Of a DNA stretch of 64,000 bases, positions 1 to 39,177 are shown piece after piece. Each line of letters starts with the position of its first letter. The first letter of the stretch is position 1. Where the stretch lies: the NCBI RefSeq assembly GCF_021655555.1, contig NZ_AP023086.1, forward strand, positions 3,046,453 through 3,110,452, written 5' to 3'. The notes below the pieces were generated by a model, which was given only the letters and a program-made list of their open reading frames with translations, ran no database searches and was not told the DNA's origin. This stretch comes from Marinagarivorans cellulosilyticus. Lineage in GTDB: Bacteria > Pseudomonadota > Gammaproteobacteria > Pseudomonadales > Cellvibrionaceae. The position numbers were made by a program, and so were the translations under genes.

Positions 1-3000
1 AGGTTTAGCGACAAAATCGTTGCCTCCAGCCAAAAAGCTCTGTGTTTTTTCGCTATCCAGTTCTTTTGCCGTTAAGAAGATTATCGGTAATTTGTACATG
101 GGGTGGGTTTTTCGCAGTGTTTGGCAAACCTCGTAGCCACTGATTTTTGGCATCATGACATCTAAAATAATAAGGTCAATTTTCTCCCCACTTTGCACGC
201 GCGCAATTGCGTCATAGCCATTTTCGGCTTCTATAGTTTGATAACCATGCAATTTTAATATACCGACTAAAACCATTCGATTAACCGCGTTATCGTCTAC
301 GCATAAAATGGTTGTGCTATTAGCATATGCTGGCGCGAGTGTTGTTACCATTGTTGGTGACGATCCACTATTCTCCTTAGAATTTAAGGCCGAAGCGCTA
401 ACTGGTAGTCGCGTTGTTGTGGTTGTTTCTTTGTGCCTTGGCGCCGCGCGTACATTGATATTTTTGCTGTCTGCTATCGGTAATGTGAAGCTAAATTTAC
501 TGCCTTGATTAAAGGTTGAGCTTGCGTAAATCTTTCCACCATGTAATTCCACGAGTTGTTTGGTAATGGCAAGGCCCAATCCCGAACCTTCGTATTCACG
601 TGAGTCGGTGTGATGAACTTGAGTGAATGATTGAAAAATCGTTTTCAAGTCTTCTTCACTAATACCTAAACCCATATCGGTAATACTAATCGTTAAGGTA
701 CGTCGATGAACGTGGGCGTTGATGTCAATGTAACCTTCGTTGCTGTACTTGATAGCATTTCCAATTAAGTTCAGTAATATTTGCTGTAGCCGATTTTTAT
801 CAGCGTAGGCTTTGGGCAGCGACGGGGGAATGTGATTATTGATACTGATTGGTTTTTTGTCGAGTAGGGGCGTGAGTAAGGCAATAACGGTTTCGGTTTG
901 TTGAAAAATATCGGTGGGGCTGCGGTTCAGTTTAATTTCTTGGTTGCCCAATTTTGACATATCCAATATGTCGTTAATTAAATGTGAAAGCCGCTTGCCA
1001 CTTTGAATAATCATGTCGAAGGTGGTGCTTTGTTTGGAGCTTAAGTGCGGAAGCAGGCTAGCTTGTAAGTTTTCGCTGAGACCGATAATGCCATTTAATG
1101 GGGTGCGTAGCTCGTGCGATGTATTGGCTAGAAATGCATCTTTCATTTTGTCGAGCTTTATAAGCTGGTCGTTAAGTGTGCGCTGTTTATTCAGCTCTAA
1201 GCGTTTCACTTTGTAGCGCCAAGCTAATTGTGCAATGCCCAGTAGCACAAGAGCGTAAGCGGCATATGCCCAAGCTGTTAGCAATGGGTGCGATTTAACT
1301 ACAATATCAATACTGGTGATTTCGGTATTCGTATTGCCGTTGGTGTCTAATACACGCGTTTTAAACTGATACCGTCCAGGCGGCAAGTGGGTATAAGACA
1401 CGTTGTTGCTGGTATCAGTTAGTCGCCAGCTTTTATCATAACCCTCGAGCATGACATGGTATTGGGTATGTTGATTTGAGCTGTAATTGAAAGCGGAAAA
1501 GGCAAAGGTAATTAGCGATTGATCATAGGTGAATTCCAGTGTTTTTGCTTCACTGATATTTTTTTTCAATGGTGATTTTGGAGTGTTTGTTGTGACTGAT
1601 TTGTTAAATATCTGCAGGTCCGTCAAGGTGACTTTTGGCGTTCTATTGGGGATTTTTAAAGAACTTGGGTTAAAAATAGTTAAGCCTTCAGTTGAGCCGG
1701 CATAGAGCTTTTGCTGTTTACCATGGCCATGCTCTTTATCAAAAAAAAGTGCATTGCGCTTATAGGTGTTACTGATTAAACCCATTTCTTTTTTTAGCAC
1801 TTCAAGGTGTAAGGTTTCTGCGTGAATTTTAACAAGGCCGTTGTCTGTTGTTACCCAAATATTGCCGTCGTTATCCTCGGCTAAACTTGCAATGTTATTT
1901 GAAGGCAGCCCATGGCTAATGGTAACGGCGGTAAATTGATCGCGCTCTGGATTAATGCGGGTTAAGCCGTCTTGTGTTCCTACCCATAATTGATTGTTAC
2001 TATCAACCAGTAGTGCAGAGGTTCGGTTACTAATAATGGAGTTTGGGTCTTGCGCGTTGTGATAATAGTGTTTTATGTGCTGCCGGGTGGGGTCAAACAC
2101 ATCTAGCCCACCTGATGTTGCCACCCACATATACTGCTGGTGGTCGATGGCAAAATCTTTTATGTGCGGGCCAGAGATATGTTTTGAATCTGCAGGTACT
2201 TGCGGTAAAAAATAGTCAAATTGTTGTGTTTTAAAATTGTAGCGGTTAATACCGTGGGTTTCGGTTCCGATCCATAGCGAATCATTGTCAATATGCAGCG
2301 CCCAAATATACGCGCTGTTGATGCTGCTTCCATTGTGACCACTCGGGTTGGGGGCAAAATGTTCGAAGCGGCCTGTTGTTGGGTCTTGCCGATGTAGGCC
2401 GCCAGACCAAGTGCCCACCCAGAGTTCGCCGGTTGTTCGCTCGGCGACTGCGAGTACAGCATTAAATTGTAATTCACCGGGCGTACCGGGTTGTGCGGTG
2501 TAGTGCCAGCTTTTAAGGCTGTGAGGGTCAAGGGCGCTAAGGCCGCCTTCCGTACCTACCCAAATATGACCTTGCTGGCTGTTTGCCAGCGTAAGAATAC
2601 CCGAGTGACTTAAGCTTGCGGGTTGGTCGAGGGTGTGTTTTAGGTGGGTAAACTGGGTACTGCCGGCTGTTAAGACATTGACGCCTAAAGGGTAAGTGCC
2701 CACCCAGAGGTTGTTGTCGCGGTCTTCAAATAGGCTGCGTACATTATTGGTAAGCAAAGAGCCGTTGTCGTGCGGGTTATGGGTGATGCGCAAGAAATTA
2801 TCGGTCGCGCGATTGAAGCGGTTGAGGCCGCCGTGATCTGTCGAAAACCATAAAGTGTTTTGGCTATCTTCATAGATTTGCCAAACGGTATTCTGACCAA
2901 TGCTGTAATCATCGTGGGTGCTATGGCGATAGTTTTGAAATGTCTGTGTGTTGGGATTCATGCGCGACACGCCACCGCCGAGCGTACTTATCCATAAATC

Positions 3001-3868
3001 TCCTGTGTGGTCGCGCACAATTGAGGTAATGCTGTTATGGCCCAGGCTGGCAGTATCTTTAGGGTCGTGCATGAAGTGTGTGGCTTCAATGATATGGCCG
3101 TCGCGACTAGCTAGCCGCAATAGTCCTTTAGTGGCGCTGCCAAGCCATAGGGTATTGTCTTGATCAATATGAAGGGCGCGAACAGACAAACTATCGACCT
3201 GTTTTTTTCACTGCGGCGGGCAGGGGGCTAAGTGCTGTACGGTCCGCTTCGAGTATAGCGAAACCGGATTCGCCTCCAATCATTAAGCGGTTATCGCCAT
3301 CAACACTCAGCGCGCGTATCGGTTGGGCCAGTAAGCTGTGTTTAAAGCGCGGATCTGAGCGGTAATTAATAAAACTATCAGTATTGGGGTTATAGCGGCT
3401 TAGGCCTTCATTGGTTCCTAGCCATAAGGTGTGATCCTTGTCGATAGCTAGAGACCAGACGGCATTGCTGGGTAGTGCTTGTGGGTTGTTTGCATCGTAG
3501 AGGTAGCGGCGAAGTTCGTGACCATCGTAGCGGGCTAAACCATATTCACCGCCAAACCACATAAAACCATGATGATCTTGGCGCATTGTTAGTATGGTTT
3601 GTACCGCGTTATTGGTTTCAGGGTTGTGAAGCAGGCGCTTAAAATGCGTGCTGGCTCGGGTTTGCGTTGCGCTAATTTCAAGTGCGGAGGCTTGCTTGGG
3701 GTGGGGGGGAGTCTCTGCGGCCCAGCTTAAAGTTGTTAAGCTGAGCAATATCATAGTTAAAGCCACTGTTAGCTGGCTTTGCTTGTGATGTAGGCATGCG
3801 AAAAAACGGCGCTGCACGGATGCGCGGCCGCCTGTTTTCCGTATGCATGCATGCCGGCCCCCAGTCAT
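1..3868 (-). CDS. Hybrid sensor histidine kinase/response regulator with an N-terminal signal peptide and a two-component-regulator beta-propeller (Reg_prop) region, followed by HisKA, HATPase_c and a C-terminal receiver. There is an apparent +1 frameshift in an A7 (T7 on the + strand) tract at 3202-3208. The 3' end runs off the window start. The start may be the internal Met at about 3754.
   Basis: The N-terminal ORF 3191-3868 carries Reg_prop-like repeats (WFGGEYGLARYDG, LWLGTNEGLSRYN). The frame with codon starts congruent to 0 mod 3 is open from 3198 to position 1 and reads ...VDSLSVRALHIDQDNTLWLGSATKGL... A G2 box REYEGSGLGLAITKQLVELH lies at 541-600 and the receiver motif IDLIILDVMMPKISGYEVCQ at 121-180, both in the same frame. 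Removing one A from the A7 run joins the two frames (AVKKQVDSLSV...). Confidence 0.7.
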
Positions 3869-4487
3869 TCTGTTCTCTCGTGCGTTAACTCCTTTAAGTG
3901 TAGTGAATATCCAGTAGTTTGCGGAATATGGGGGTTTACCCGCCGTTTATTCATGTTTTGTAGCTATTCAGCCATCTGCACAATTAGCCCTCAATTTTGC
4001 AGATGTCTGAATAGTTACCCATTTTTAAGCTTTTCGCGGCTCGCTTGTGCTCAATAGTGTGTGCTGAGCATGCTTTACGCCGGCGTCTGACTTTTCGCTG
4101 AGCACAGCTGTAGTAAAAAGTAGGCCGAATGCCAAGAACAGGGTGATTAAAGCAACAACGACAAAGTGTAGCGGTTGTTCAATTGAATAATGTAGGTGCC
4201 AAAATTGGTTCATAGGGTTACCTCACAGCTAAGCTGTTACAGGGACGTAGCGCATGTGCGCAATTTTCTGGTCAGAGCCCTTTGATTGCGCGGCGGTTAC
4301 GTGCCGTTAAGGCGATATGGCCTAATACCAAGATAGTGCTTGGCGCATAAATCAACAAATACCGTTTTGTTCAGTTGCGTTGTTTTTTATGCCATTGCAT
4401 TGCAGTCGGTTTATTTTACCGGGCGTGTGACGGATACCTCTAGGGCTTCTGTATACTGCGGCTTTACTGTTGTTTGGATATTGCACC

Positions 4488-28376: not shown

Positions 28377-29114
28377 CTAGCTGACTTTGTGTTGCGCTTG
28401 TTGCTCTAGTGCGAATATGGCTGAACGATTCGGTTGGAGCGGATCGTAAGGTGGGCTGTTTTTTATTTCCTCTTTTGTCATGCCGAGCATAATCTCTTGA
28501 TCTGCCCATTCCACGCTGGTGAAGTGGTCGGGGGCCAGTAAAACGTGTTCGCCACCGGGTAGCCAATTTCGGGTATTGGCGGCAATAAAGGCGATGGCCC
28601 AGTGCTCGGTACTCAATAAAAAGTCTTCGATGTGGCCAAAACTGCGGTCTTTGGCGTGCAGCTTGTAGCCTAACACTTCGTTAATTGAGCGTAGATGGTA
28701 ATCAACGTTTTCACCGTCTGAAATGCCGGTATTCATGGGCTCTCGCAGTGTCATGGGGTTTGCTGTTGCTCCCCACATGCCTCCATACATCCAGTAAAAA
28801 CCATAACCATAGTATTGAAAGAATGTTTTCTCGTAATGCTTGGAGATTGGCGCGTGCTCATCAAGTGACGGCGCATTCAAAAGCTGGTCCTTGCTAATGT
28901 TGAGTTGTAAAACTTGGTTGTCAGCATCGACAGTATCGATGGAGATAGGGCTGATTAGTAATTTTTTGCCGCCAGGAAGCCAGTTATGCGTGTCGATCAC
29001 TAGGTACCTAGCTGTCCAGTGCAGGTCATCAAACAGTATGTCGTTTACCTTAAAGCGACTTCCGTCGCTGGTGATGGCGGACAGTGCTTTGAGGTCTTTA
29101 TATGGGTAAAACAT
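28377..29114 (-). CDS. Protein with two PRC-barrel-like repeats
   Basis: Internal duplication: ARYLVIDTHNWLPGGKKLLISPISI vs AIAFIAANTRNWLPGGEHVLLAPDHF. Confidence 0.5.
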   Translation of the reverse strand: MFYPYKDLKALSAITSDGSRFKVNDILFDDLHWTARYLVIDTHNWLPGGKKLLISPISIDTVDADNQVLQLNISKDQLLNAPSLDEHAPISKHYEKTFFQYYGYGFYWMYGGMWGATANPMTLREPMNTGISDGENVDYHLRSINEVLGYKLHAKDRSFGHIEDFLLSTEHWAIAFIAANTRNWLPGGEHVLLAPDHFTSVEWADQEIMLGMTKEEIKNSPPYDPLQPNRSAIFALEQQAQHKVS

Positions 29115-29424
29115 ATGAGTCTCCTTTGATTAGCGTGCTCTGTTGGCCTTGATGGATGGTCGGTTAACTATTGATCAAGGCCGCTAGTTGCTTGCGTAAA
29201 AGCAAGTCTTACCCGTAGGTAGCAGGGATTGTGCCGGTTTCGGATATTAGCTAAGCGGTAAGACAAATAATCTTACATGAAAGATGTTGACTCATTACAT
29301 GTAATAATAGTAATCTAGCTTTGCGGTTGTGGTGAGGCTTGTTATTCACAAAGGATTGCGAGAGGATGCAAAGCGCTTATCGGCAGGGTGCCGGCAGTGG
29401 GTACAAATGGATGTATTGCTAAGG

Positions 29425-29464
29425 ATTGGTGTTTGGATTTAGCGTGATATAAATAGCCTATAAT
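29425..29464 (+). promoter_or_regulatory. Candidate sigma70 promoter for the PspA-flotillin operon: an extended -10 TGaTATAAA at 29445-29453 and an alternative TATAAT at 29459-29464
   Basis: Sequence only, about 60-70 nt upstream of the ATG at 29520. Confidence 0.3.
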
Positions 29465-29519
29465 TGGCTACCTTACCCAATCGCAAACTTATTAACTCTT
29501 TATCTTTAGGTGACAACAA

Positions 29520-30209
29520 ATGAATATTTGGTCAAAATTGGTAACAGCGTTACGCGGTGGCGTTAATGAAGCTGGCGAGGCGATTGTGGATAGCCAGGCG
29601 CTGCGTATATTGGAACAGGAAATTCGTGACGCTTCGGTTGAGTTACAACAATCGAAAGACAGTTTGGCTTCTATTATGGCGCGCCAAAAGGTAAGTGAAG
29701 AAAAATGTAATCAATTACGTGAAAAAGTTGCAGAGCATGAAAGCTATGCACTTAAAGCGCTAGAGCAAGACAATGAAAGCCTAGCGGCTGAAGTTGCGCA
29801 AAAAATCGCTGAGATTGAAAACCGGCTGGCTAACGAAAGTGCATCATGTGAAAGCTATGCCAGCAGTGCTTCGGATTTACGCCAAGCCATTCAAAAAGCC
29901 GACGATGATTTGGCGCAACTTAAGCACGAAGTAGATACGGTTAAAGCGACCGAAAGCGTTCAAAAAGCACAGGCTGCTGTATCGGCTAAGCATAGTGGGA
30001 CTAACGCCAAGCTATTAACGGCAGCGGAGTCGCTAGAGCGAATTAAAGAAAAGCAAGCTTTGAAGTCAGCTCAAATGAAAGTCGCTGCCGAGTTAGCGCG
30101 AGATACATCGGGTGATGGGCTTGAAGCGAAGCTTAAGGATGCAGGTATAACGCCGGCAGGCAATAGCGCACAGAGCGTGCTTGCTAGGCTGAAAAACAAA
30201 CAACAATAA
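29520..30209 (+). CDS. pspA: PspA/IM30 (Vipp1/ESCRT-III-like) family protein
   Basis: N-terminus MNIWSKLVTALRGGVNEAGEAIVDSQALRILEQEIRD and an all-helical coiled-coil pattern typical of PspA. There is no pspBC/pspF nearby. Confidence 0.85.
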   Translation: MNIWSKLVTALRGGVNEAGEAIVDSQALRILEQEIRDASVELQQSKDSLASIMARQKVSEEKCNQLREKVAEHESYALKALEQDNESLAAEVAQKIAEIENRLANESASCESYASSASDLRQAIQKADDDLAQLKHEVDTVKATESVQKAQAAVSAKHSGTNAKLLTAAESLERIKEKQALKSAQMKVAAELARDTSGDGLEAKLKDAGITPAGNSAQSVLARLKNKQQ

Positions 30210-30250
30210 AGCCCTTGTAATAAAGGGCGTGTACAAGGAGTCTCGTTATT

Positions 30251-30931
30251 ATGTTTGCCATCTTATTTAGCGAAGGCATGACGCCCTTTTATCAAAATGT
30301 CAGTAGCTTTCCGACTGTCTTTTTTAGTTTTTTTCTTATCGTATCTTGTCTTTTTTGGGCGATATCAATCATGGGAATGATTGATATCGAAATCCTCGAT
30401 CTGCCCGAAGCAGAAACCGGCGGCGAAGAGGGTATGGTAAACGGTGTTTCCACCGTGCTGCTTAAGCTGGGTTTAAATGGCGTCCCTATCACTATTATTA
30501 TTACGCTAATAGCCTTGTTCGGCTGGTTTGTTAGTTTTTATAGCGTCTATTTTTTTCAGATATCTGATTTGATGGCGCCTATCCGTTGGGTCGCTAACGT
30601 CGCTATTTTTGCTGCATCGCTTTACGTTGCCATTCTCATAACGTCTCAGGTGATTAAGCCGTTGCGCTCGTTATTTAAAAGTATGTCTAATGATATACAA
30701 AAGAAAATCCTAGGGCAGGCCGCCGTTGTGCGTACTTCGCGGGTGGACGAAAAGTTTGGCGAAGCAGAATTTAATGATGGTGGTGCAGGCCTAATTCTTA
30801 AAGTCCGATCTTTTGATGGTGCGGTGTTTAAGCGTAACGATCGTGTTATTTTGCTTGAATACGTTGCCGAGCAAAATTTTTATAAAGTTATTGCAGAATC
30901 CGAATTCTCGCTTGGCGGAGCTGCTCAGTAA
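30251..30931 (+). CDS. yqiJ: YqiJ/DUF1449-like inner-membrane protein with a C-terminal NfeD-type OB fold (flotillin partner)
   Basis: Three to four N-terminal TM helices, then a C-terminal OB-like segment GQAAVVRTSRVDEKFGEAEFNDGGAGLILKVRSFDGAVFKRNDRVILLEY. It lies immediately upstream of the flotillin gene, as in E. coli yqiJK. Confidence 0.75.
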   Translation: MFAILFSEGMTPFYQNVSSFPTVFFSFFLIVSCLFWAISIMGMIDIEILDLPEAETGGEEGMVNGVSTVLLKLGLNGVPITIIITLIALFGWFVSFYSVYFFQISDLMAPIRWVANVAIFAASLYVAILITSQVIKPLRSLFKSMSNDIQKKILGQAAVVRTSRVDEKFGEAEFNDGGAGLILKVRSFDGAVFKRNDRVILLEYVAEQNFYKVIAESEFSLGGAAQ

Positions 30932-30989
30932 TTTATTTCCAATAAATATTTAATGTGTTTTAAAGCCAATTCTACAATGGAGAACTAAT

Positions 30990-33011
30990 ATGGCTGATTT
31001 TTCTGGTATGGGAGGGCTCCTCGTTGGGGCTGTTGTTGTCTTTTTCATTATCATGGGGCTTATCTCGCTTATTAAGCTTTATGTGAAGGTCGAGCAGGGG
31101 ACGGCGTTAATAGTCAACGGCCTTGGGGCGGTGCCTCGAGTGCATTTTACCGGAGCCATTGTTTATCCGTTGATCTACAAAAAGGAATTGATGCGTATAT
31201 CGCTGATTACCTTAGAAGTCGATCGCCGAGGCAAAGAAGGGTTGATTTGTCGCGATAATATGCGCGCCGATATCACAGTTGCTTTTTACCTGCGCGTTAA
31301 CGAAACCGAGCAAGATGTTCTTAAGGTTGCAAAATCTCTTGGCTCTGCGCGCGCTAGTGATAAGGCGGCGGTGAATGAACTTTTTAATGCAAAATTTTCG
31401 GAGGCGCTAAAAACGGTTGGTAAGCAGCTTGATTTCGTTAAGTTGTTTGAAGACAGGCAGGAGTTTCGAGACAAAATTGTTGAGGTAATCGGCAATGACC
31501 TCAATGGTTATGTACTAGAAGATGTTGCAATTGACTACCTTGAACAAACGCCCAAAGTATCGCTAGACCCGAATAATATTCTGGATGCCGAAGGTATTCG
31601 TAAAATTACCGAACTTACCGCAAGCCAAAATGTATTTACCAACAATCTTGAGCGCGATGAAGAGTTGGCGATCAAGAAAAAGAACGTTGAGACCACAGAG
31701 GCAATGTTGGAGCTCCAACGTCAACAAGCCGATGCCGAGGCGCGTCAAGAACGCGAAATAGCGACCTTAAAAGCTCGAGAGGAAGCAGAAACTAAAAAGG
31801 TACAAGAAGAAGAGCGCCGCCGTGCCGACTCGACCACTATTCAAGTGGAGCAAGATCTTCAAGTGCAAACTGAAAACCAGCGCCGAGAAATAGAAGTGGC
31901 GGAGCAAAATCGCTTGCGTGCAGTGGCTATTGAAGAAGAAAAAGTGACGCGCGCACGTGCTTTGGAAGTTGTTTCCCGTGAGCGCGAAGTTGAAATACAA
32001 AAAATTGAAGCTGAGAAGGCCATTGAAGTTGAGCGTAAAGAAATTGCTAATGTGATTCGTGAGCGTGTTGCTGTCGATAAAACGGTAGCTATTGAAGAAG
32101 AGCGCATTAATGAGGTGCGTGAAGTTTCGGAGGCGGATCGCCTTAAGCAAGTTAAAGTGTTGGCTGCTGAAGCTGATGCGGAAGAAGATAAAGTCAAGCA
32201 AGTAAAAGCGGCTGAAGCTGAAGAAATATCAGCTAAGCACAAGGCTATAGAAGTGACGACAATGGCAGAGGCCGAGTTGGAAGCCGCTTCTAAACAGGCA
32301 GAGGCGAAAAAGAAAATGGCTGAAGCTTTACGTGTCGAACGCGCGGCGCCAGGGCTTGCTGAGGCAAGTGTGCAGGCAGCTAAAGCGGAATCTTTGGAAA
32401 AAGAAGGTCTTGCGCAAGCATCTGTTATTAGAGCAAAAGGTGATTCAGAGGCGATAGTTATTCAGTCTAAAGGTGACGCCCAAGCCAGTGCTCTATTGCA
32501 ATCTGGTAAAGCAGAAGCTGAAGTTATTTCTGCGAAAGGTGAGTCAACAGCAACATCTGATCGTGAAATTGGTTTAGCGGGCGCTAATGTTACCCGTGAA
32601 CAATTCCGTGCAGAGGCTGATGGTTTAGTCGAGAAATTCGATGCCATGAGTAAGATGAGTGCCGATGCGCGTTCGCACGAAGAGTTCCGCATGACGTTAG
32701 AAACGGCCTTGAAAGAGGCCTTAGCGTCAATTGATGCAGGCAAAGAAATCGCGAAAGAAAATGCCGAAGTATTGGCCACAGCCCTGCAAAATGCCAAGAT
32801 TGATATTGTTGGTGGCGAAGATCACCTGTTTAACAACTTCGGTAAAGCATTATCTATGGGGAAAGCCATCGATGGCTTGGCCGGTAAAAGTGACACCATT
32901 GCGGGTTTGTTAGAACGATTTGCGGGCATTAAGCTGCCAATACCGACCCATGGTCAAGGCAGTGCGCCAAATGCTCCAGTCGCTAAAGCGGATGACGCTG
33001 AAACTGTTTAA
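30990..33011 (+). CDS. yqiK: Flotillin family SPFH/band-7 protein (YqiK-like) with a long EA-rich coiled-coil and an 11-residue repeat tail
   Basis: N-terminal TM plus SPFH core (VEQGTALIVNGLGAVPRV...ITLEVDRRGKEGLICRDNMRADITVAFYLRV), then E/A/K/R-rich helices. Confidence 0.9.
   Translation: MADFSGMGGLLVGAVVVFFIIMGLISLIKLYVKVEQGTALIVNGLGAVPRVHFTGAIVYPLIYKKELMRISLITLEVDRRGKEGLICRDNMRADITVAFYLRVNETEQDVLKVAKSLGSARASDKAAVNELFNAKFSEALKTVGKQLDFVKLFEDRQEFRDKIVEVIGNDLNGYVLEDVAIDYLEQTPKVSLDPNNILDAEGIRKITELTASQNVFTNNLERDEELAIKKKNVETTEAMLELQRQQADAEARQEREIATLKAREEAETKKVQEEERRRADSTTIQVEQDLQVQTENQRREIEVAEQNRLRAVAIEEEKVTRARALEVVSREREVEIQKIEAEKAIEVERKEIANVIRERVAVDKTVAIEEERINEVREVSEADRLKQVKVLAAEADAEEDKVKQVKAAEAEEISAKHKAIEVTTMAEAELEAASKQAEAKKKMAEALRVERAAPGLAEASVQAAKAESLEKEGLAQASVIRAKGDSEAIVIQSKGDAQASALLQSGKAEAEVISAKGESTATSDREIGLAGANVTREQFRAEADGLVEKFDAMSKMSADARSHEEFRMTLETALKEALASIDAGKEIAKENAEVLATALQNAKIDIVGGEDHLFNNFGKALSMGKAIDGLAGKSDTIAGLLERFAGIKLPIPTHGQGSAPNAPVAKADDAETV
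32418..32549 (+). repeat. Four tandem imperfect 33-bp repeats encoding an 11-residue periodic motif (ASVIRAKGDSE / AIVIQSKGDAQ / ASALLQSGKAE / AEVISAKGEST) inside the flotillin gene
   Basis: Direct reading of consecutive 33-nt units: 32418-32450, 32451-32483, 32484-32516, 32517-32549. Confidence 0.55.
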
Positions 33012-33024
33012 TACTTGTCATATC

Positions 33025-33054
33025 AAGGGCGGGCGCTATTTTTGCGCTTGCCCT
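33025..33054 (+). promoter_or_regulatory. Intra-operon GC-rich stem-loop (AGGGCGGGCGC-tattttt-GCGCTTGCCCT) between the flotillin and giant ATPase genes. Possible attenuator or partial terminator.
   Basis: Imperfect hairpin of about 11 bp in the 117-bp spacer. It is followed by a ctgaaaatttt region rather than a clean U-run. Confidence 0.3.
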
Positions 33055-33128
33055 CCTGTCTGAAAATTTTAGTTCGTTATATATAGCCTGAATTAGGTTT
33101 TTTTGTCTGTTAGAAAAAGGAATGCGCC

Positions 33129-36100
33129 ATGTCTACGCTTGAGTCTGTTGACGAAAAAAATGCTCTTGTTGATTCTGCTGTTGCAGAAGGAGGGGCTTAT
33201 GAAATTATCCGTCAGCGTCTGCTTGAGCAGGGCAAGGCTCTAAAGAAGTCGACAGATGCGATTAATGCCGAGCGTTTAGAAGAGTTTGGCAGTACAGATA
33301 TGGATGTTGTTGCCCGTGTTCGTGTGCGTACCGAAAATAATTCAGTGGCGAGGGATATTGTCCAGGTTGGTGAGTATTTATTATTCGGCTATAACGTTTT
33401 TATTGGTTTAAAAAAAGAAACTAAAGTTGAAGACGTATTATCTTTATTTTGTTTTAGTGAGGCCGATGGTGAATATAACCTAGAGCCTGTTGCACAAAGT
33501 GATAACTTTCTGTTTGAAAGTAGCTTCAAAAATGATTTTGAAGAGCTGTACCGTTATTACAAAAATACCAAGTTAACCCAGCTGACAGTTAAAAATGAAC
33601 GTCTGCTAGCAGCTTTTCAAATTGGCGAGCGGCTAGAGGACGTGCGAGTTTTTCGCTGGGCTATATCGGCCGATGGTAAGACACTCACCTATATAGATAA
33701 TCGTGGCGAACGCGATATTCAACTGCCAAATGCCTATGACTTTGAATGGATTGAAACACGCCGTGAAGATGTTGTACATGGCCGCCATGCGCACATCAAT
33801 ATTGCCGATACGGTGTTTGTCGATACCATTGGCGGCGATCTCACGATTAAAATAGAAAATAATACCGAAGATGGATTGGGGATATACCGGGAAAGTGTTG
33901 AAGATAAGACCCAATCTTTAGATGATGCCTCTGTTCACTACGCCAAAGTGGGTGCTTTAATTTTAATTAAAATATTGCCTTATCGTGAGCAGCAATGGCG
34001 TTATTTTATTTATAACACACTAACAGAAAGTGCATTGCGCATCGATGCGATTGGTGAAAGTTGTTTGCAGTTGCCAGAAGATCACGGTGTTATTTTCCCT
34101 GGTGGTTTCTATTTACAAACTGGGGAACATAAGTCATTTGATGATCCTGTTGAGGGTTTGCGCTTCAAACGTATGATTCGTTCACCTAATGGTGAAGATG
34201 CGCTATATGTTTTTTATGAGCCCGTTGAGGGTGTTGTGGCGCTGCTAAGTTATAACCTTATCGATAAAAGCTTGAAAAACCCTATATTGGGGCATGGCTA
34301 TGCGCTATTCGAGGATGGCCGAATTGTTATATTTACGGCCGAAGAAGAGCCTGCGCGGGTACACCCCATGCAAATTTGGCAAAGTCCATTTGCCTCGCCA
34401 GAGTACGCAAGTAAGCAGCCGGTGAGCCAGAGCTTTTATGGTCGTATCGGTAATGCCGAATTGGTTCGTGGTGTGTCCGATCTTTATAGTATTCACCGCA
34501 TTATTCAGAATCAATCTGTGTCCCTTAAGCTATACGAAGAGCTTAGCCGTACGGCACATAAGATGTTCGATAACCACTATTGGTTAGCTGAAGAAAAGTT
34601 ATCTGAAATAGGGGACACGCTAAAGCAGATTGAGAAAACATCTGAATTGGTTATTGATGAATTCGAGAAGGTTGAAAGTATTCGTCAGCAGTCCTCTAAA
34701 GCTATGCAGGATGCACAAGCCCAGCAAGAAAGTTTATTGTCGGTGGCTAAGTATAACGAATGGGATACCGTAGAGGGCTACATTGAAACCATTGGTAAGC
34801 TGCGTAAACATCGTGGTTTATTGGTAACATTAAAAGATTATCGCTATATCGATCTCGTTAAGCTGGAAGAACTTGACCGTGAAATCGTTGAAGTTAGCGA
34901 GGAATTAAGCGATAAGACAGTCTCGTTTTTATCTGGTGCTGATGCACTAAAACCTTATGCGCAAAAAATATCTCAACTCGATGAGCAAGCTGAAAAAGTA
35001 GCTACTAGCCTAGAGCTAGAGCCACTTTTAGAGCGGGTTTCTGCATTGGCCGAGAACTTAGATTTGTTATCTGAGTTGATGGCGACATTAAATATTGCCG
35101 ATGCTAATGTTCGAACACAAATTATTGATGCGATATCCACGGTTTACTCAAGTTTAAATCAAACTAAAGCGCGAATAAAAAACAAGCAAAAGAATGTTGG
35201 CTCTAAAGAAACGCGGGCTCAATTCTCGGCTCAGTTTAAATTGTTTTCGCAGACAATTAACAACGCTTTGGGCCAGTCTACAACGCCAGAAAAATGCGAA
35301 GAGCAACATGCTCGGCTGTTGGTTCAGTTAGAGGAATTTGAAAGCCAGTTTAGCGAGGTGGACGAATTTTTAGCCGATATTATGGCTAAGCGAGAAGAGG
35401 TGCAAGAAGCTTTTGAGGCGCAAAAGCAAAAGTTATTGGATGAACAGCAACGCAAAGCGGGCTCAGTGGTTGATGCAGCCTCTCGTATATTGAGCAGTAT
35501 TGAAAAGCGATCGCTCAAATTCACGGAGGCTAATGATCTTAATACGTACTTTGCATCTGACGTGCTGGTTTCTAAAGTGCGAGACATGGTAGAGCGTTTG
35601 CGCGAGCTGAATGCTGCGGTTCAAGCAGACGATATTGATGCAAAGTTTAAAGCGATTAAAGAACAAGCGGTGCGTTCACTTCGGGATAAAACGGATATTT
35701 TTGAAGATGGCGGAAAAGTTATTAAATTGGGCCCTCGCCATAAATTCAGTGTTAATCAGCAGGATTTAGATTTAACCCTTTTACCCCGCAACGATGTGCT
35801 CAATATACATTTAAGCGGTACCGATTTTTATGAGCAAATCGAGCACGATGGCCTTACAGCGCTTAAGCCTTATTGGTCTGTATCGTTGGAGTCAGAAAGC
35901 GAAGCGGTTTATCGCTCGGAATATTTAGCTTATTTAATTATCCAAGCGGCGAGAAATAATGAAGGATCCCTGTCGAATAAAGTGCTGTATGGCGCTATAA
36001 CAGATGTCGACGCGTTGACTCAACTGGTGCGGGAATTTGCTGGCCCACGCTACAAAGAAGCCTACGAAAAAGGTGTTCACGACCATGATGCTGTACGTAT

Positions 36101-38624
36101 ATTGCAAAAAATTGTGCCCTCTATGCAAAAGGCGGATACGCTAACGTACGAGCCCAATGTAAGAGCGCTGGCTCAATTGTTTTGGTGTTACTCGCAGCCT
36201 ATGGTGAATGGTGCTGAGGTAGCAAAGAAAGAAAAGTTTCAATGGAAGGTTTGGGCCTCGCGTGCGCAATCGGCTGCAAAGTTGAGTGCGTTATTCGGCA
36301 GCCTTGAAGCGACGACGCTTTTAGAGCGTGAAGTGACTGCCGCAATCAAAGAATTTGTTGGGGATTATTCGCTGTCCTTTGCTGATGGCGATTGTAAAGT
36401 GGCGGCGCAATACTGTGTTGCAGAGCTTGCTAAAGACGATCTTGCATTTGCGACAACATCCTATGCACAAAAACTTATTGAGCATTTGCGTTCTGCAGTT
36501 GATATCGGTGTTTGGGATAATTACCAAAGTAATTTAAAGCATTTAGCGGCCGAGCCCGCTGCGGCCTATGCGCTAAGCCAAGCTTGGCTAAAGGCCTTAA
36601 CCGAAAGTAAAGCCTTGCCCGATATTGCAGCCTATATCGATGAAGCCGCTGTTATTCTCGCTACCGATAAAATGAATGCTGGTGTGGATGTGCCGCGCAG
36701 GAATGTTGTGGTAGATCTCGATGTTAAAATTGACGGCTTATTGGGTGATCATCAAAAGTTAGATCAACAAACACTAAAGCTATCCCTTAATCGCTTTCTT
36801 AAAACTTTGCGTCATCATGTAGAAGTTTATGTTCCAAGTTATCATCGCTATTTAGTATTGCGCGCAGAAGTTATGCAGCAAGAAAGGGATAAGCTTCGCT
36901 TGGAGGAGTTCAAGCCTCGCCCATTAAGCTCATTTGTTCGCAACCTCTTAATCAATGAATCGTATTTGCCGATTATTGGCGATAACCTAGCCAAACAAAT
37001 GGGTACCGTGGGGGATAGTAAGCGTACTGACCTGATGGGCTTATTGATGATGATATCGCCACCGGGTTACGGTAAAACAACTTTAATGGAATATGTTGCA
37101 AGCCGTTTGGGGCTGATCTTTATGAAGATCAACTGCCCGTCGCTTGGGCACGATGTGATGTCGTTAGACCCAGAGCATGCGCCCAATGCCACAGCGAGAC
37201 AAGAGTTAATTAAGCTGAATCTAGGCCTGGAAATGGGCAATAACGTTATGTTATACCTCGATGATATTCAGCATACCCATCCCGAATTTTTGCAGAAGTT
37301 TATTTCTTTATGCGATGGAACTCGTCGCGTCGATGGTGTGTGGAAGGGTAAAACAAAGACATACGATATGCGTGGTCGAAAGTTTTGTGTGGTTATGGCG
37401 GGTAACCCGTACACAGAGTCGGGTGAAGTCTTTAAAGTGCCAGATATGCTGGCAAACCGCGCCGATATTTATAACTTGGGTGATATCTTAGGTGGTATGG
37501 ATCAGCAGTTTGCCATGAGTTACATCGAAAATAGTTTGACATCCAATTCGGTGTTGGCCCCTCTGGCTTTGCGTTCTTTGGATGATGTTTACAAACTGAT
37601 CGCCAAAGCGGAAGGCGAAAATATAGCGGCAACAGATTTAAGCCATGCGTACAGTGGTGCTGAAATTGCTGAAATTTGTGATGTGTTAAAAAAGATGTTT
37701 GTCGTACGCGATGTGATTCTTAAAATAAATCAACAGTACATTGCCTCAGCTGCGCAAAATGATAAATACCGAGTCGAGCCACCCTTTAAGTTGCAAGGTA
37801 GTTATCGGAACATGAATAAAATGGCTGAGAAAATCTCTGCTGTGATGACTCGCGATGAGTTAATGGCGATGATCGATGATCATTACCAGGGGGAATCGCA
37901 GCTTTTAACCAGTGGCTCAGAAGATAACCTGCTTAAGTTAGCCGAGCTTCGCGGCAACATGACACCCGAGCAACAGCAGCGGTGGACAGCAATTAAAGCC
38001 GACTTCCTTAAAAACAAAGATGCCGATAGCGATGCAGACGGCGCTCAGCGCATTGCGCTAAAAATTGCTGAGGTAACAGAAGCCCTGCAAGGTGTTGGTG
38101 CTGTATTTTCGCAGGAGTCTGCCGTGGTGGCGCCTTTGGCAGCTATCGGTCAGCAGTTGCACAGTTTACAAGGGCAATTATCATCGGACCCTTTGCGTAT
38201 AGAATTGCAAGAGCCGCCCCAGCAAGCGCTCAATGCCATTGCGTCGGCTATTGAGCAATCTGGCGCGGCTATTAGCCAGTCTTCACAAAAGGCGGTGGGA
38301 GAGGCACCTGCATGGCTTGAACCTCTTGAGCTTATAGCGAATAAATTTGGTGCCTTAGAATCCGTTGTTGGCGATCAAGGCATTAAGATTGATACTGGCC
38401 ACTTAGCGAATGGCCAAGGTGATCAATTGGGCCGCGTTGCTGATGTGTTGGAAAGCGCGGCTGACAAGTTAACCTCAGCCGTTGAAAAGTCCATTGATTT
38501 TGATATCACGATCGTTAAACGTATAACAAAGTTATCGGCAGAGTTGCGGGCTTTTTCTACAGAACGATTAGGTAAAAAGAAAGACAGCGATGAATTTGAA
38601 GAGCTTGGGGGTGATGAAGCTTAG
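33129..38624 (+). CDS. Giant (1831 aa) coiled-coil protein carrying a single MoxR/AAA_5-like AAA+ ATPase module; function unknown. It is the fourth gene of the PspA-NfeD-flotillin operon.
   Basis: Walker A MMISPPGYGKTTLMEY (about nt 37050-37090), Walker B NVMLYLDDIQH, and a sensor-1/Arg region FCVVMAGNPYTESGEVFKVPDMLANRADIY (NP...R spacing typical of MoxR/dynein/midasin AAA_5). An N-terminal domain of about 450 aa, probably beta-rich, is followed by about 800 aa of E/K/Q/L-rich coiled coil and an acidic C-terminus. Confidence 0.8.
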   Translation: MSTLESVDEKNALVDSAVAEGGAYEIIRQRLLEQGKALKKSTDAINAERLEEFGSTDMDVVARVRVRTENNSVARDIVQVGEYLLFGYNVFIGLKKETKVEDVLSLFCFSEADGEYNLEPVAQSDNFLFESSFKNDFEELYRYYKNTKLTQLTVKNERLLAAFQIGERLEDVRVFRWAISADGKTLTYIDNRGERDIQLPNAYDFEWIETRREDVVHGRHAHINIADTVFVDTIGGDLTIKIENNTEDGLGIYRESVEDKTQSLDDASVHYAKVGALILIKILPYREQQWRYFIYNTLTESALRIDAIGESCLQLPEDHGVIFPGGFYLQTGEHKSFDDPVEGLRFKRMIRSPNGEDALYVFYEPVEGVVALLSYNLIDKSLKNPILGHGYALFEDGRIVIFTAEEEPARVHPMQIWQSPFASPEYASKQPVSQSFYGRIGNAELVRGVSDLYSIHRIIQNQSVSLKLYEELSRTAHKMFDNHYWLAEEKLSEIGDTLKQIEKTSELVIDEFEKVESIRQQSSKAMQDAQAQQESLLSVAKYNEWDTVEGYIETIGKLRKHRGLLVTLKDYRYIDLVKLEELDREIVEVSEELSDKTVSFLSGADALKPYAQKISQLDEQAEKVATSLELEPLLERVSALAENLDLLSELMATLNIADANVRTQIIDAISTVYSSLNQTKARIKNKQKNVGSKETRAQFSAQFKLFSQTINNALGQSTTPEKCEEQHARLLVQLEEFESQFSEVDEFLADIMAKREEVQEAFEAQKQKLLDEQQRKAGSVVDAASRILSSIEKRSLKFTEANDLNTYFASDVLVSKVRDMVERLRELNAAVQADDIDAKFKAIKEQAVRSLRDKTDIFEDGGKVIKLGPRHKFSVNQQDLDLTLLPRNDVLNIHLSGTDFYEQIEHDGLTALKPYWSVSLESESEAVYRSEYLAYLIIQAARNNEGSLSNKVLYGAITDVDALTQLVREFAGPRYKEAYEKGVHDHDAVRILQKIVPSMQKADTLTYEPNVRALAQLFWCYSQPMVNGAEVAKKEKFQWKVWASRAQSAAKLSALFGSLEATTLLEREVTAAIKEFVGDYSLSFADGDCKVAAQYCVAELAKDDLAFATTSYAQKLIEHLRSAVDIGVWDNYQSNLKHLAAEPAAAYALSQAWLKALTESKALPDIAAYIDEAAVILATDKMNAGVDVPRRNVVVDLDVKIDGLLGDHQKLDQQTLKLSLNRFLKTLRHHVEVYVPSYHRYLVLRAEVMQQERDKLRLEEFKPRPLSSFVRNLLINESYLPIIGDNLAKQMGTVGDSKRTDLMGLLMMISPPGYGKTTLMEYVASRLGLIFMKINCPSLGHDVMSLDPEHAPNATARQELIKLNLGLEMGNNVMLYLDDIQHTHPEFLQKFISLCDGTRRVDGVWKGKTKTYDMRGRKFCVVMAGNPYTESGEVFKVPDMLANRADIYNLGDILGGMDQQFAMSYIENSLTSNSVLAPLALRSLDDVYKLIAKAEGENIAATDLSHAYSGAEIAEICDVLKKMFVVRDVILKINQQYIASAAQNDKYRVEPPFKLQGSYRNMNKMAEKISAVMTRDELMAMIDDHYQGESQLLTSGSEDNLLKLAELRGNMTPEQQQRWTAIKADFLKNKDADSDADGAQRIALKIAEVTEALQGVGAVFSQESAVVAPLAAIGQQLHSLQGQLSSDPLRIELQEPPQQALNAIASAIEQSGAAISQSSQKAVGEAPAWLEPLELIANKFGALESVVGDQGIKIDTGHLANGQGDQLGRVADVLESAADKLTSAVEKSIDFDITIVKRITKLSAELRAFSTERLGKKKDSDEFEELGGDEA

Positions 38625-38631
38625 GTAACGT

Positions 38632-39177
38632 TTATTTACGTCGCCACTGCCTTGGCAGTTTGGCGGCGATTAAAACGCCGGCTAGCGCTCCGAACAAGTG
38701 CGCTTCAAAGGATATCTGTGGTTGCGAAGGTAATACGCCTAGAATCATACCGCCCCACAATAGGATAACTACAATGGCGATAAGGAAGGTCTTTAGGCTG
38801 CGATTATACCAAGCGTTAGCAATGCCTAACGCCCATAATCCAAAAATCCAGCCGCTTGCGCCAATGTGAATATTGTTGCGGCCAAACAGCCAAACTCCAA
38901 ATCCACCAAGCACAATAATTAAAAAACTCACACGCCAAAAGTAGCGTATACCGTGCGCCATGGTAATCAGCGCAAAAATGCTTAAGCCAACAATATTATT
39001 TAATAAATGGCTAACACTCCCGTGTAAAAAAGGGCTGAAGACAATACCGGCTAAGCCGTTTAGTTCGCGTGGCATAATGCCAAAGCGATTAAGTTGACCT
39101 TGAAATAACCCAGTGTTTATTGCAAAAACAGCGCACAACACGAAGACCAAAAAGATAATCGTTTTTATTTTTTTCAT
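38632..39177 (-). CDS. Rhomboid family intramembrane serine protease
   Basis: Six TM helices with the catalytic GxSG (HIGASGWIFGLWA) and a downstream His (AHLFGALAGVL). Confidence 0.8.
   Translation of the reverse strand: MKKIKTIIFLVFVLCAVFAINTGLFQGQLNRFGIMPRELNGLAGIVFSPFLHGSVSHLLNNIVGLSIFALITMAHGIRYFWRVSFLIIVLGGFGVWLFGRNNIHIGASGWIFGLWALGIANAWYNRSLKTFLIAIVVILLWGGMILGVLPSQPQISFEAHLFGALAGVLIAAKLPRQWRRK

Follow-up and report, generated by a model that had tools for sequence, protein, structure and literature searches.

Which membrane system does a 1831-residue AAA+ ATPase serve when its gene ends an operon that also encodes a PspA/IM30 protein, an NfeD-like (YqiJ) membrane protein, and a flotillin? 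The question is raised by a locus of Marinagarivorans cellulosilyticus (contig NZ_AP023086.1) at positions 29520-38624 of the 64,000-nucleotide stretch that was analyzed, referred to below as the window. A first-pass annotation, made from the sequence alone, had proposed a functionally undescribed unit in which the giant protein, by analogy with Vps4, disassembles a PspA polymer on a flotillin/NfeD platform. In the present analysis, the constant partners of the giant were the YqiJ-like protein and the flotillin, rather than PspA. The operon itself has already been described as a class, of which the window holds a further, slightly reduced member. The four open reading frames (ORFs) are located on the + strand, encode proteins of 229, 226, 673, and 1831 amino acids (aa), and are separated by gaps of 41, 58, and 117 bp, in agreement with the original gene calls:

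29520..30209, + strand: gene 1, YjfJ-class PspA/IM30 protein (BacB homologue), soluble (Pfam, BLASTP)
30251..30931, + strand: gene 2, divergent YqiJ/YuaF-like (short NfeD-type) inner-membrane protein (BacC homologue) (hhalign, BLASTP)
30990..33011, + strand: gene 3, YqiK-type flotillin (BacD homologue) with N-terminal transmembrane (TM) segment, SPFH domain, long coiled coil, and Ala/Glu-rich C-terminal region (BLASTP)
33129..38624, + strand: gene 4, 1831-aa soluble giant ATPase (BacE homologue; NCBI name "DNA repair ATPase") (Pfam)

Constant and accessory partners of the giant ATPase

The gene neighborhood of the giant was surveyed in 80 loci plus two others, which were annotated with iteratively built hidden Markov models. 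The 80 survey loci were the best-scoring ones; the deepest branch was sampled too, with five further loci reached via the 26%-identical representative P0388. Co-directional genes for the YqiJ-like protein, the flotillin, and the giant were present in 73 of the 74 loci with enough upstream sequence and in all five deep-branch loci (78/79 in total). The triad occurs in six or more phyla, with representatives among the Gamma-, Beta-, and Zetaproteobacteria, Myxococcota, Actinomycetota, Bacteroidota, and Firmicutes (a Clostridia metagenome-assembled genome and Lachnospiraceae), and Bacteroidota and Lachnospiraceae are also found among the deep-branch loci. In Actinomycetota and Myxococcota, the triad genes are often spaced by as little as -4 to +30 bp. 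This adjacency is far beyond chance, and the expectation that a functional unit would recur across distant taxa was thus confirmed for the triad.

PspA was encoded within the fetched flanks of 42/78 loci overall, with a strongly uneven distribution. It was present in 31/42 gammaproteobacterial, 8/10 betaproteobacterial, and 2/2 Bacteroidota loci, whereas it was found in 0/11 loci of Myxococcota and 0/7 loci of Actinomycetota. Many Xanthomonadales loci also contain the giant without a nearby PspA. The proposed linkage of the giant to PspA and flotillin therefore stood for the flotillin/YqiJ pair and fell short for PspA. Where PspA occurs, it is usually accompanied. A DUF2170 gene was located within the flank in all 39 PspA-bearing proteobacterial survey loci, and the Bacteroidota PspA is preceded by a gene matching Pfam CesT_Tir_1. 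The PspA-DUF2170 dyad is transcribed divergently in four loci (L044, L049, L054, and L060) and convergently in L091.

The conserved core is a triad of a YqiJ-like 3-TM protein, a YqiK-type flotillin, and the soluble giant. PspA(YjfJ) is an accessory module gained in Proteobacteria and Bacteroidota, as a rule along with a CesT/Tir-type partner. The emphasis of the first reading is corrected accordingly: a MoxR-class ATPase is tied to the flotillin/YqiJ pair and not primarily to PspA, and experiments are therefore directed toward flotillin remodeling.

Relation to previously described operons

The operon had been regarded as undescribed, but two bodies of work were found to cover it. Ravi et al. 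(PMC11237479; preprint 2020, mSystems 2024) reported operons that join CesT/Tir-PspA with three other genes, sometimes together with a PLD gene, and also noted abbreviated operons without PspA (see also their Table S3). ATP-dependent, ESCRT-like remodeling was proposed there for the PspA-AAA+ associations, and the Band-7, CesT/Tir, and AAA+ proteins were read as chaperone-like assembly factors (PMC11237479). The domain architectures of all four window genes are those of this class, and its PspA-less operons agree with the survey. The window differs from it in that its PspA has no CesT/Tir partner.

The second description is that of the "biofilm-associated cluster" bacABCDEF of Pseudomonas aeruginosa, PA3732-PA3727 or PA14_16140-16200 (Mace et al. 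2008, PMC2587700; Wallart et al. 2024, PMC10948618). All six bac genes are co-transcribed in P. aeruginosa according to reverse transcription-PCR (RT-PCR), and deletion of bacA raises BacB-F 6- to 13-fold (PMC10948618). BacA is the proposed negative regulator. A putative sigma-54 site has been reported for the operon (PMC2587700, PMC10948618). The system affects biofilm formation, rhamnolipid production, and virulence: PA3731 (BacB) is induced by hyperosmotic shock, and its deletion leads to less biofilm, swarming, rhamnolipid production, and virulence (PMC2587700).

For the assignment of the bac genes, the published RT-PCR primers were translated and then mapped onto each gene family. The primer-encoded peptides fall at the expected positions in the DUF2170, PspA (N terminus), YqiJ-like, flotillin, giant, and PLD-like families. 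The N terminus of gene 1, MNIWSK, fits the BacB primer peptide M[NT]VWSK, and the BacC primer peptide GLILKV is present unchanged in gene 2 at aa 180. In the giant family, the peptides TENNCIA and LIKVM are located at codon 68 and near the C terminus, respectively, and the last primer lies at the start of the PLD-like protein. Primer PA14_16180/90_R (PMC10948618, supplementary file 1) is printed as a 21-mer among 20-mers. After removal of one T it matches L016 with one mismatch and codes for TENNCIA, the conserved motif of the giant; the extra T is probably a misprint. For the bacD-bacE amplicon, a length of 546 bp is predicted, compared with 557 bp published. Because the primers map onto the giant family, BacE is identified with the giant. 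The Pseudomonas loci L010-L017 and L043 contain the same families in the same order as the window. The full bac form thus consists of a YjfI-like chaperone, a YjfJ-class PspA, a YqiJ-like anchor, a flotillin, the giant ATPase, and a PLD-like protein (BacA-F), and PaFlo3 is BacD. PA3729, which appears in the Arc paper (PMC8926400), was followed as a lead and rejected, as it represents immunoprecipitation background only.

The window operon is a reduced variant of this bac-type operon. BacB to BacE correspond to the YjfJ-class PspA, the YqiJ-like protein, the flotillin, and the giant ATPase, and their order is kept. The differences are that no BacA was found in the 64 kb, that no BacF and no recognizable sigma-54 site were found, and that a rhomboid gene is convergent with the giant. 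The RT-PCR and mutant data come from P. aeruginosa. What the giant does is a question that has already been posed in the literature, and the find in the window is in itself ordinary and of modest interest. Its value lies in linking three incompletely cross-referenced literatures, namely Psp comparative genomics, the bac operon, and the P. aeruginosa SPFH proteins. The system is also widespread. The giant family comprises thousands of protein clusters (at least 4,919 homologous clusters at 90% identity; 920 clusters at 50% identity for aa 1-700), with at least 585 matches among species-representative genomes.

Identity of genes 1 to 3

Gene 1 matched Pfam PspA_IM30 with 164.8 bits. In BLASTP searches it was similar to E. 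coli YjfJ (E=9e-43, 38% identity over the full length), compared with E=0.006 only for E. coli PspA. On the basis of these similarities, gene 1 is classified as a YjfJ-class PspA paralogue and not as a classical PspA. No hydrophobic or TM segment was found in the protein. The first-pass annotation had pointed out that the classical partners are absent, and indeed PspB, PspC, and PspF were not among the flanking genes, so that no PspFABC system is present at the locus; the absence is explained by the YjfJ class of gene 1. The E. coli yjfIJ pair (DUF2170 plus YjfJ) thus shares the PspA-type component with the window. However, yjfI is absent in the window, and E. coli yjfIJ is followed by yjfKLMC (spermidine-related) instead of a flotillin and an ATPase.

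For genes 2 and 3, neither Pfam nor NCBIfam gave any match, even at E<=10, although Pfam does recognize E. coli YqiJ and YqiK in a control. Both genes were therefore identified by pairwise and profile comparison with these two E. coli proteins. A profile of the gene 2 family, built from 35 members of many phyla, aligned with E. coli YqiJ in hhalign with 95.1% probability (E=3.2e-8), and the alignment spans the TM hairpin and the beta domain. A narrower profile of 24 members gave 81% (E=1.2e-5). The direct BLASTP match of gene 2 to YqiJ was weak (E=0.001) and collinear over the full length. An NCBI protein that is 100% identical to gene 2 is named "DUF1449 domain-containing," DUF1449 being the old name of YqiJ. 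The Pfam YqiJ models reach only 1/35 of the relatives and miss gene 2 itself, and the family is for this reason termed divergent YqiJ-like. The protein has three hydrophobic stretches, corresponding to about 3 TM segments, and a C-terminal beta domain. Judged from its sequence, gene 2 fits a YqiJ or short NfeD protein, with a multi-TM N-terminal part and a C-terminal beta domain, putatively of the OB type, encoded beside an SPFH gene. A sequence search of the Protein Data Bank (PDB) with gene 2, both as a single sequence and as a profile, revealed no solved relative.

Gene 3 matched E. coli YqiK with E=6e-49 and 32% identity over 465 aa, a range that includes the TM anchor, the SPFH domain, and the coiled coil. 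A single TM segment is located at the N terminus (aa 1-35). Pfam Band_7 reaches 6/35 members of the gene 3 family (best E=5e-11). The Pfam Flot domain was not matched by gene 3 or its 35 relatives, whereas E. coli YqiK matches it at 6.4e-41. A weak resemblance to FloT and QmcA was seen in the EA-repeat region. From these comparisons, gene 3 is assigned as a YqiK-type SPFH protein or flotillin with N-terminal anchor, SPFH domain, and coiled coil. The pairing of a flotillin with an NfeD (YqiJ) partner, as first annotated, was therefore upheld. The E. coli yqiJK pair is homologous and has the same gene order. However, no giant ATPase or PspA is encoded beside it, the window flotillin is 120 aa longer, and the window proteins are missed by the Pfam Band_7, Flot, and YqiJ models.

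An association of PspA with an SPFH protein and membrane anchors is also encoded by Bacillus subtilis pspA-ydjGHI (samGHI). The B. subtilis SPFH protein reportedly recruits PspA and links it to the membrane (PMC8581546). That operon differs from the window in having no AAA+ ATPase, and YdjI, its SPFH protein, as well as the anchors YdjG/H are members of other families.

Domain organization of the giant ATPase

The giant had been expected to contain AAA_5 and little else. In contrast, the strongest Pfam match was DUF3686 (675.8 bits, aa 38-484), and DUF7902 was also present (96.9 bits, aa 605-688). AAA (30.4 bits) and AAA_5 (24.0 bits) were both over the cut-off at aa 1306-1429. The following parts were distinguished:

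33303..34382, + strand: beta-propeller domain, aa 59-418, inside DUF3686 and after a long N-terminal helix at aa 23-53 (AlphaFold2, Foldseek)
34434..35225, + strand: long helical hairpins or coiled coil, aa 436-699, including DUF7902 (AlphaFold2, Pfam)
35676..36188, + strand: conserved middle region, aa about 850-1020 (invariant alignment columns)
36936..38048, + strand: MoxR/midasin/dynein-class AAA+ module with lid, aa about 1270-1640

An AlphaFold2 model of the N-terminal 700 aa (pLDDT 85.9, model mcb065ac597d8) shows a helix at aa 23-53, an all-beta region at aa 59-418, and long helical hairpins at aa 436-699. In Foldseek comparisons against the PDB, the beta region matched beta-propellers only (Elp1, Ski8, YncE, sialidases, prolyl oligopeptidase, and Vps18); these matches are generic, with low TM-scores of up to 0.38. 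According to the model, the N-terminal domain is a beta-propeller. No TM segment was found in the giant, and a sequence search of the PDB gave nothing.

The AAA+ model (aa 1190-1640) had a pLDDT of 82.7. Its best matches by two methods were MoxR-class ATPases, with NorQ and CbbQ found by Foldseek, and it contains a beta-hairpin ahead of the sensor-1 strand at aa about 1400-1413. Sequence likeness to classical AAA proteins is limited to the P-loop stretch. Together with the Pfam AAA_5 match, the single MoxR/dynein-type module of the first-pass annotation was corroborated, and the module is of the AAA_5 type (MoxR/midasin/dynein class). Its motifs are Walker A GYGKTT (1313-1318), Walker B LDD (D1378, D1379), sensor-1 N1426, and R1444 in PDMLANRAD. 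These are also where the invariant residues cluster across 38 diverse family members (alignment A2). The pattern GNPxxE...P..L.NR resembles the MoxR signature. Walker B (window 37260-37265) has Asp-Asp in place of the usual Asp-Glu and is invariant across the giant family, which may point to slow or regulated hydrolysis.

Further invariant residues of the 38-member alignment lie in the middle region (D853, G868, E923, G982, H984, and D987, with the motif KGVHDHD) and at E1172 and H1208. No Pfam match was obtained for the middle region, which could, judging from these residues, be a metal-binding or catalytic site. The family member P0403 (1876 aa) has ankyrin repeats fused to its N terminus, and ankyrin-repeat genes are located near the giant of the deep-branch locus L086 (L086:1-807, 2416-3978).

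In the databases, the giant is called "DNA repair ATPase" (NCBI) or, under Pfam DUF3686, "ATPase involved in DNA repair." Nothing but these names speaks for a function in DNA repair, in which case the neighboring membrane protein genes would be incidental. Neither genomic context nor domain content supports them: the giant gene directly follows the flotillin gene in 78/79 loci, and nucleic-acid-binding and nuclease domains were not detected in the Pfam scan. A literature search revealed no paper with the term DUF3686 and none pairing "DNA repair ATPase" with flotillin. A role in DNA repair is hardly credible, and the names look like propagated misannotation.

The structural matches raise another possibility. 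MoxR-class ATPases usually act with a VWA-domain adaptor as partner, and NorQ remodels nitric oxide reductase. The giant resembles CbbQ, NorQ, and RavA in the fold of the AAA+ module and in its Pfam AAA_5 match. It differs in that propeller, coiled coil, and conserved middle region extend the N terminus by about 1,300 residues, in a C-terminal tail of about 190 aa, and in Asp-Asp in Walker B. It could thus serve as a MoxR-like maturation or insertion chaperone for client membrane protein complexes in flotillin microdomains, with the scaffolds themselves not being remodeled. Such a role would be in line with CbbQ and NorQ, the closest folds, which remodel a client enzyme (Rubisco in the case of CbbQ), and with the chaperone-like assembly function that Ravi et al. 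suggested for these proteins (PMC11237479). S. aureus FloA-NfeD, moreover, reportedly stabilizes unfolded proteins (as cited in PMC13086221). However, no VWA-domain partner was among the recurrent neighbors of the giant, which were not scanned with a VWA profile, and no conserved candidate client gene was among them either. A pure chaperone role is accordingly considered improbable.

The Vps4 analogy was weakened as well. In its full form, the giant would disassemble and recycle the ESCRT-III-like PspA polymer, and flotillin and YqiJ would provide only the platform. PspA is a member of the ESCRT-III superfamily (Junglas 2021 and Liu 2021, as given in a citing paper). As with ESCRT-III and Vps4, the membrane protein forms polymers and has an AAA+ ATPase encoded nearby. 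The analogy gains from the presence of PspA in the same operon in 42/78 loci of two distant phyla, from the co-regulation of BacB and BacE in P. aeruginosa (PMC10948618), and from the ESCRT-like remodeling that Ravi et al. propose (PMC11237479). Nevertheless, the association of the giant with its core partners does not depend on PspA, which is absent from the fetched flanks of 18/18 Myxococcota and Actinomycetota loci as well as from many Xanthomonadales loci, and the PspA dyad is divergent or convergent in the five loci named above. A MIT domain was not detected in the Pfam scan of the giant, and the ATPase is of the MoxR class. Because of the phyletic pattern, the ATPase class, and the undetected MIT domain, a dedicated Vps4-like function is disfavored and appears unlikely, though somewhat less so than a role confined to client maturation.

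The reduced Marinagarivorans operon

The window was searched by tblastn with three DUF2170 (BacA/YjfI) proteins, and nothing was found in the 64 kb (best E=0.39). The 405 bp upstream of pspA gave no tblastn signal either, and the idea of a decayed DUF2170 gene there was rejected. An assembly artifact was rejected as well. The relative L092, with a giant that is 72% identical, has the same XdhC-MobA-PspA-YqiJ-flotillin-giant arrangement and also no DUF2170, and the loss is therefore regarded as a stable lineage trait. Only the window and L092 have a PspA without a CesT/Tir partner in the sample; L086, in which the gene upstream of a distant PspA is uncharacterized, was left aside in this comparison. 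The relative L091, with a giant that is 68% identical, contains DUF2170, a divergent PspA-like gene, and a rhomboid gene as a convergent unit downstream of the giant. The gene of the BacF or PLD/HKD-like protein (about 229 aa), which is optional in the published description, was found in 14 loci, with no member in the window.

Transcription signals

Consensus scans gave 12 promoter-like sites (18.0 ± 5.3 expected from shuffles) and 13 terminator-like sites (12.4 ± 3.7 expected). Because there is no enrichment over the shuffled sequences, such scans cannot decide the operon structure. One element stood out in folding calculations:

33026..33054, + strand: 11-bp, G+C-rich stem-loop in the 117-bp flotillin-giant spacer; candidate internal attenuator or RNA-stabilizing element (folding energy)

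With its flanks, this hairpin has a folding energy (dG) of -21.7 kcal/mol (z = -3.75), and 0/200 shuffles fold as well. It is not directly followed by a U-run. Hairpins of unrelated sequence are located in the same spacer of relatives (L006:2835-2857, L091:5928-5954, and L092:5868-5926), with a U-run in L006 and L091. The Shine-Dalgarno sequence of the giant, AAAAGGAA, is invariant in the window and its relatives. From these sequence features, the spacer hairpin is probably an internal attenuator that lowers the expression of the giant relative to the scaffold. A hairpin after pspA was not significant (z=-1.55). A perfect TATAAT hexamer is located at window positions 29459-29464 (+), 55 nt upstream of the pspA start codon. 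It lacks a good -35 element and is considered a candidate promoter of this lineage, which has neither bacA nor a recognizable sigma-54 site.

Proposed function of the operon

On balance, we favor a role of the locus as a reduced member of the bac-type envelope-stress operon, in which the giant is an ATP-dependent remodeler at a flotillin platform and PspA a possible co-client. Flotillin would oligomerize into an SPFH assembly on the cytoplasmic side of the inner membrane, where its N-terminal TM segment and the YqiJ-like partner would anchor it. The giant would dock on this assembly via its propeller or coiled coil, oligomerize via the AAA+ module, and remodel the flotillin scaffold, or clients of it, at the expense of ATP. 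A polymer of PspA(YjfJ) would be recruited to the platform and seal or stabilize the stressed membrane, and the ATPase may act on this polymer as a second substrate. The hairpin ahead of the giant gene would probably keep the giant below the level of the scaffold.

Several points weigh against this proposal. The ATPase activity of the giant is not certain, because Walker B is LDD and not DE. A hexamer is assumed from the fold class, and the contacts between giant, flotillin, and PspA are predicted by analogy. E. coli yqiJK works without any giant, and the ATPase is therefore not required for flotillin function in general. No experiment on the giant or BacE itself was found in the literature. 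In this clade, terminator-like hairpins separate the gene for the giant from that for the flotillin, and co-transcription in M. cellulosilyticus is therefore uncertain. A sigma-54 site upstream of pspA was not found in 29115-29525, where the best match to TGGCAC-N5-TTGCA had 4/11 mismatches; the first gene also differs from that in P. aeruginosa, as bacA is absent. Without BacA, BacF, and a recognizable sigma-54 site, the regulation in the window may differ from that in P. aeruginosa.

A bolder version of the remodeler role is offered tentatively. Here, the giant would be dedicated to assembling or uncoating bacterial flotillin cages with the energy of ATP, and the pair would parallel HflK/C-FtsH without being proteolytic. 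A propeller-helical module reminiscent of membrane-coat proteins would grip the scaffold, and PspA(YjfJ) would be an optional repair polymer on the same platform. HflK/C-FtsH is described as an SPFH assembly that houses an AAA+ machine (PMC13220708). The window shares with HflK/C-FtsH and prohibitin-m-AAA the obligatory pairing of an SPFH-family scaffold and an AAA+ protein, which is the tightest linkage of the survey (78/79). The giant differs from FtsH and m-AAA in that it has no TM segment, that no protease domain was detected by Pfam, and that it belongs to another AAA+ clade. If such a cage machine exists, it would be the first known energy-dependent regulator of bacterial flotillins, and the Marinagarivorans operon, having no DUF2170, would represent a minimal version that is de-repressed by nature.

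Neighboring genes

Besides the PLD/HKD-like gene, two kinds of recurrent neighbors that are not in the window were observed near the giant. TelA-like genes occur in Xanthomonadales, and small TerB-like ORFs are also recurrent. The TelA-like gene encodes about 370 aa and is located downstream of the giant in 12 Xanthomonadales loci (L026, L027, L029, L030, L033, L035, L039, L041, L046, L050, L058, and L072), most of which have no PspA; all except L029 also have a 252-aa gene after the giant. The small TerB-like ORFs were seen in nine other loci and in L087. The recurrence of both suggests alternative membrane-stress modules that are plugged into the same triad.

A rhomboid gene directly follows the giant, in the same direction, in 11/46 gammaproteobacterial loci. 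In L008 it is located upstream of the giant and divergent. In the window it has the opposite orientation:

38632..39177, - strand: rhomboid-family membrane protease (Pfam Rhomboid, E=1.2e-20)

The rhomboid and giant genes converge, their stop codons being 7 bp apart, and the rhomboid occupies the same position as in the convergent unit of L091. The window rhomboid shares 63% identity with that of L091 and 50-53% with the rhomboids that follow the giant co-directionally in Saccharophagus and Hahella. A gap of 20 bp separates its start from the phoR stop codon, and it may belong to the phoBR transcript. Long NfeD proteases cleave stomatin, and by analogy the rhomboid might conceivably act on the flotillin or the YqiJ-like protein.

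The upstream flank of the operon contains xanthine-dehydrogenase-type, XdhC, and MobA-like genes, followed by a minus-strand PRC-barrel gene. Downstream, the rhomboid, phoR, phoB, and UbiA-family prenyltransferase genes are all on the minus strand. The flanking genes are housekeeping genes (molybdenum-cofactor genes, phoBR, and the UbiA-family prenyltransferase gene), and no compositional anomaly was found at the locus. These surroundings bear on a function in anti-phage or anti-competitor membrane defense, which might be suspected from the history of the PspA family in the phage-shock response and from the PLD-like and rhomboid genes that often adjoin. However, the context is not that of a defense island, and the synteny within the lineage is stable and core-genome-like. 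No PADLOC model matches genes 2-4, and gene 1 gave only weak coiled-coil matches of <=20 bits. Membrane defense is thus judged very unlikely.

The PRC-barrel gene lies between the MobA-like gene and pspA:

28377-29114, - strand: PRC-barrel-domain gene

At its position in the relative L092, no gene is called and only a gap of about 540 bp is present. The PRC-barrel gene is probably a lineage-specific insertion that is unrelated to the operon.

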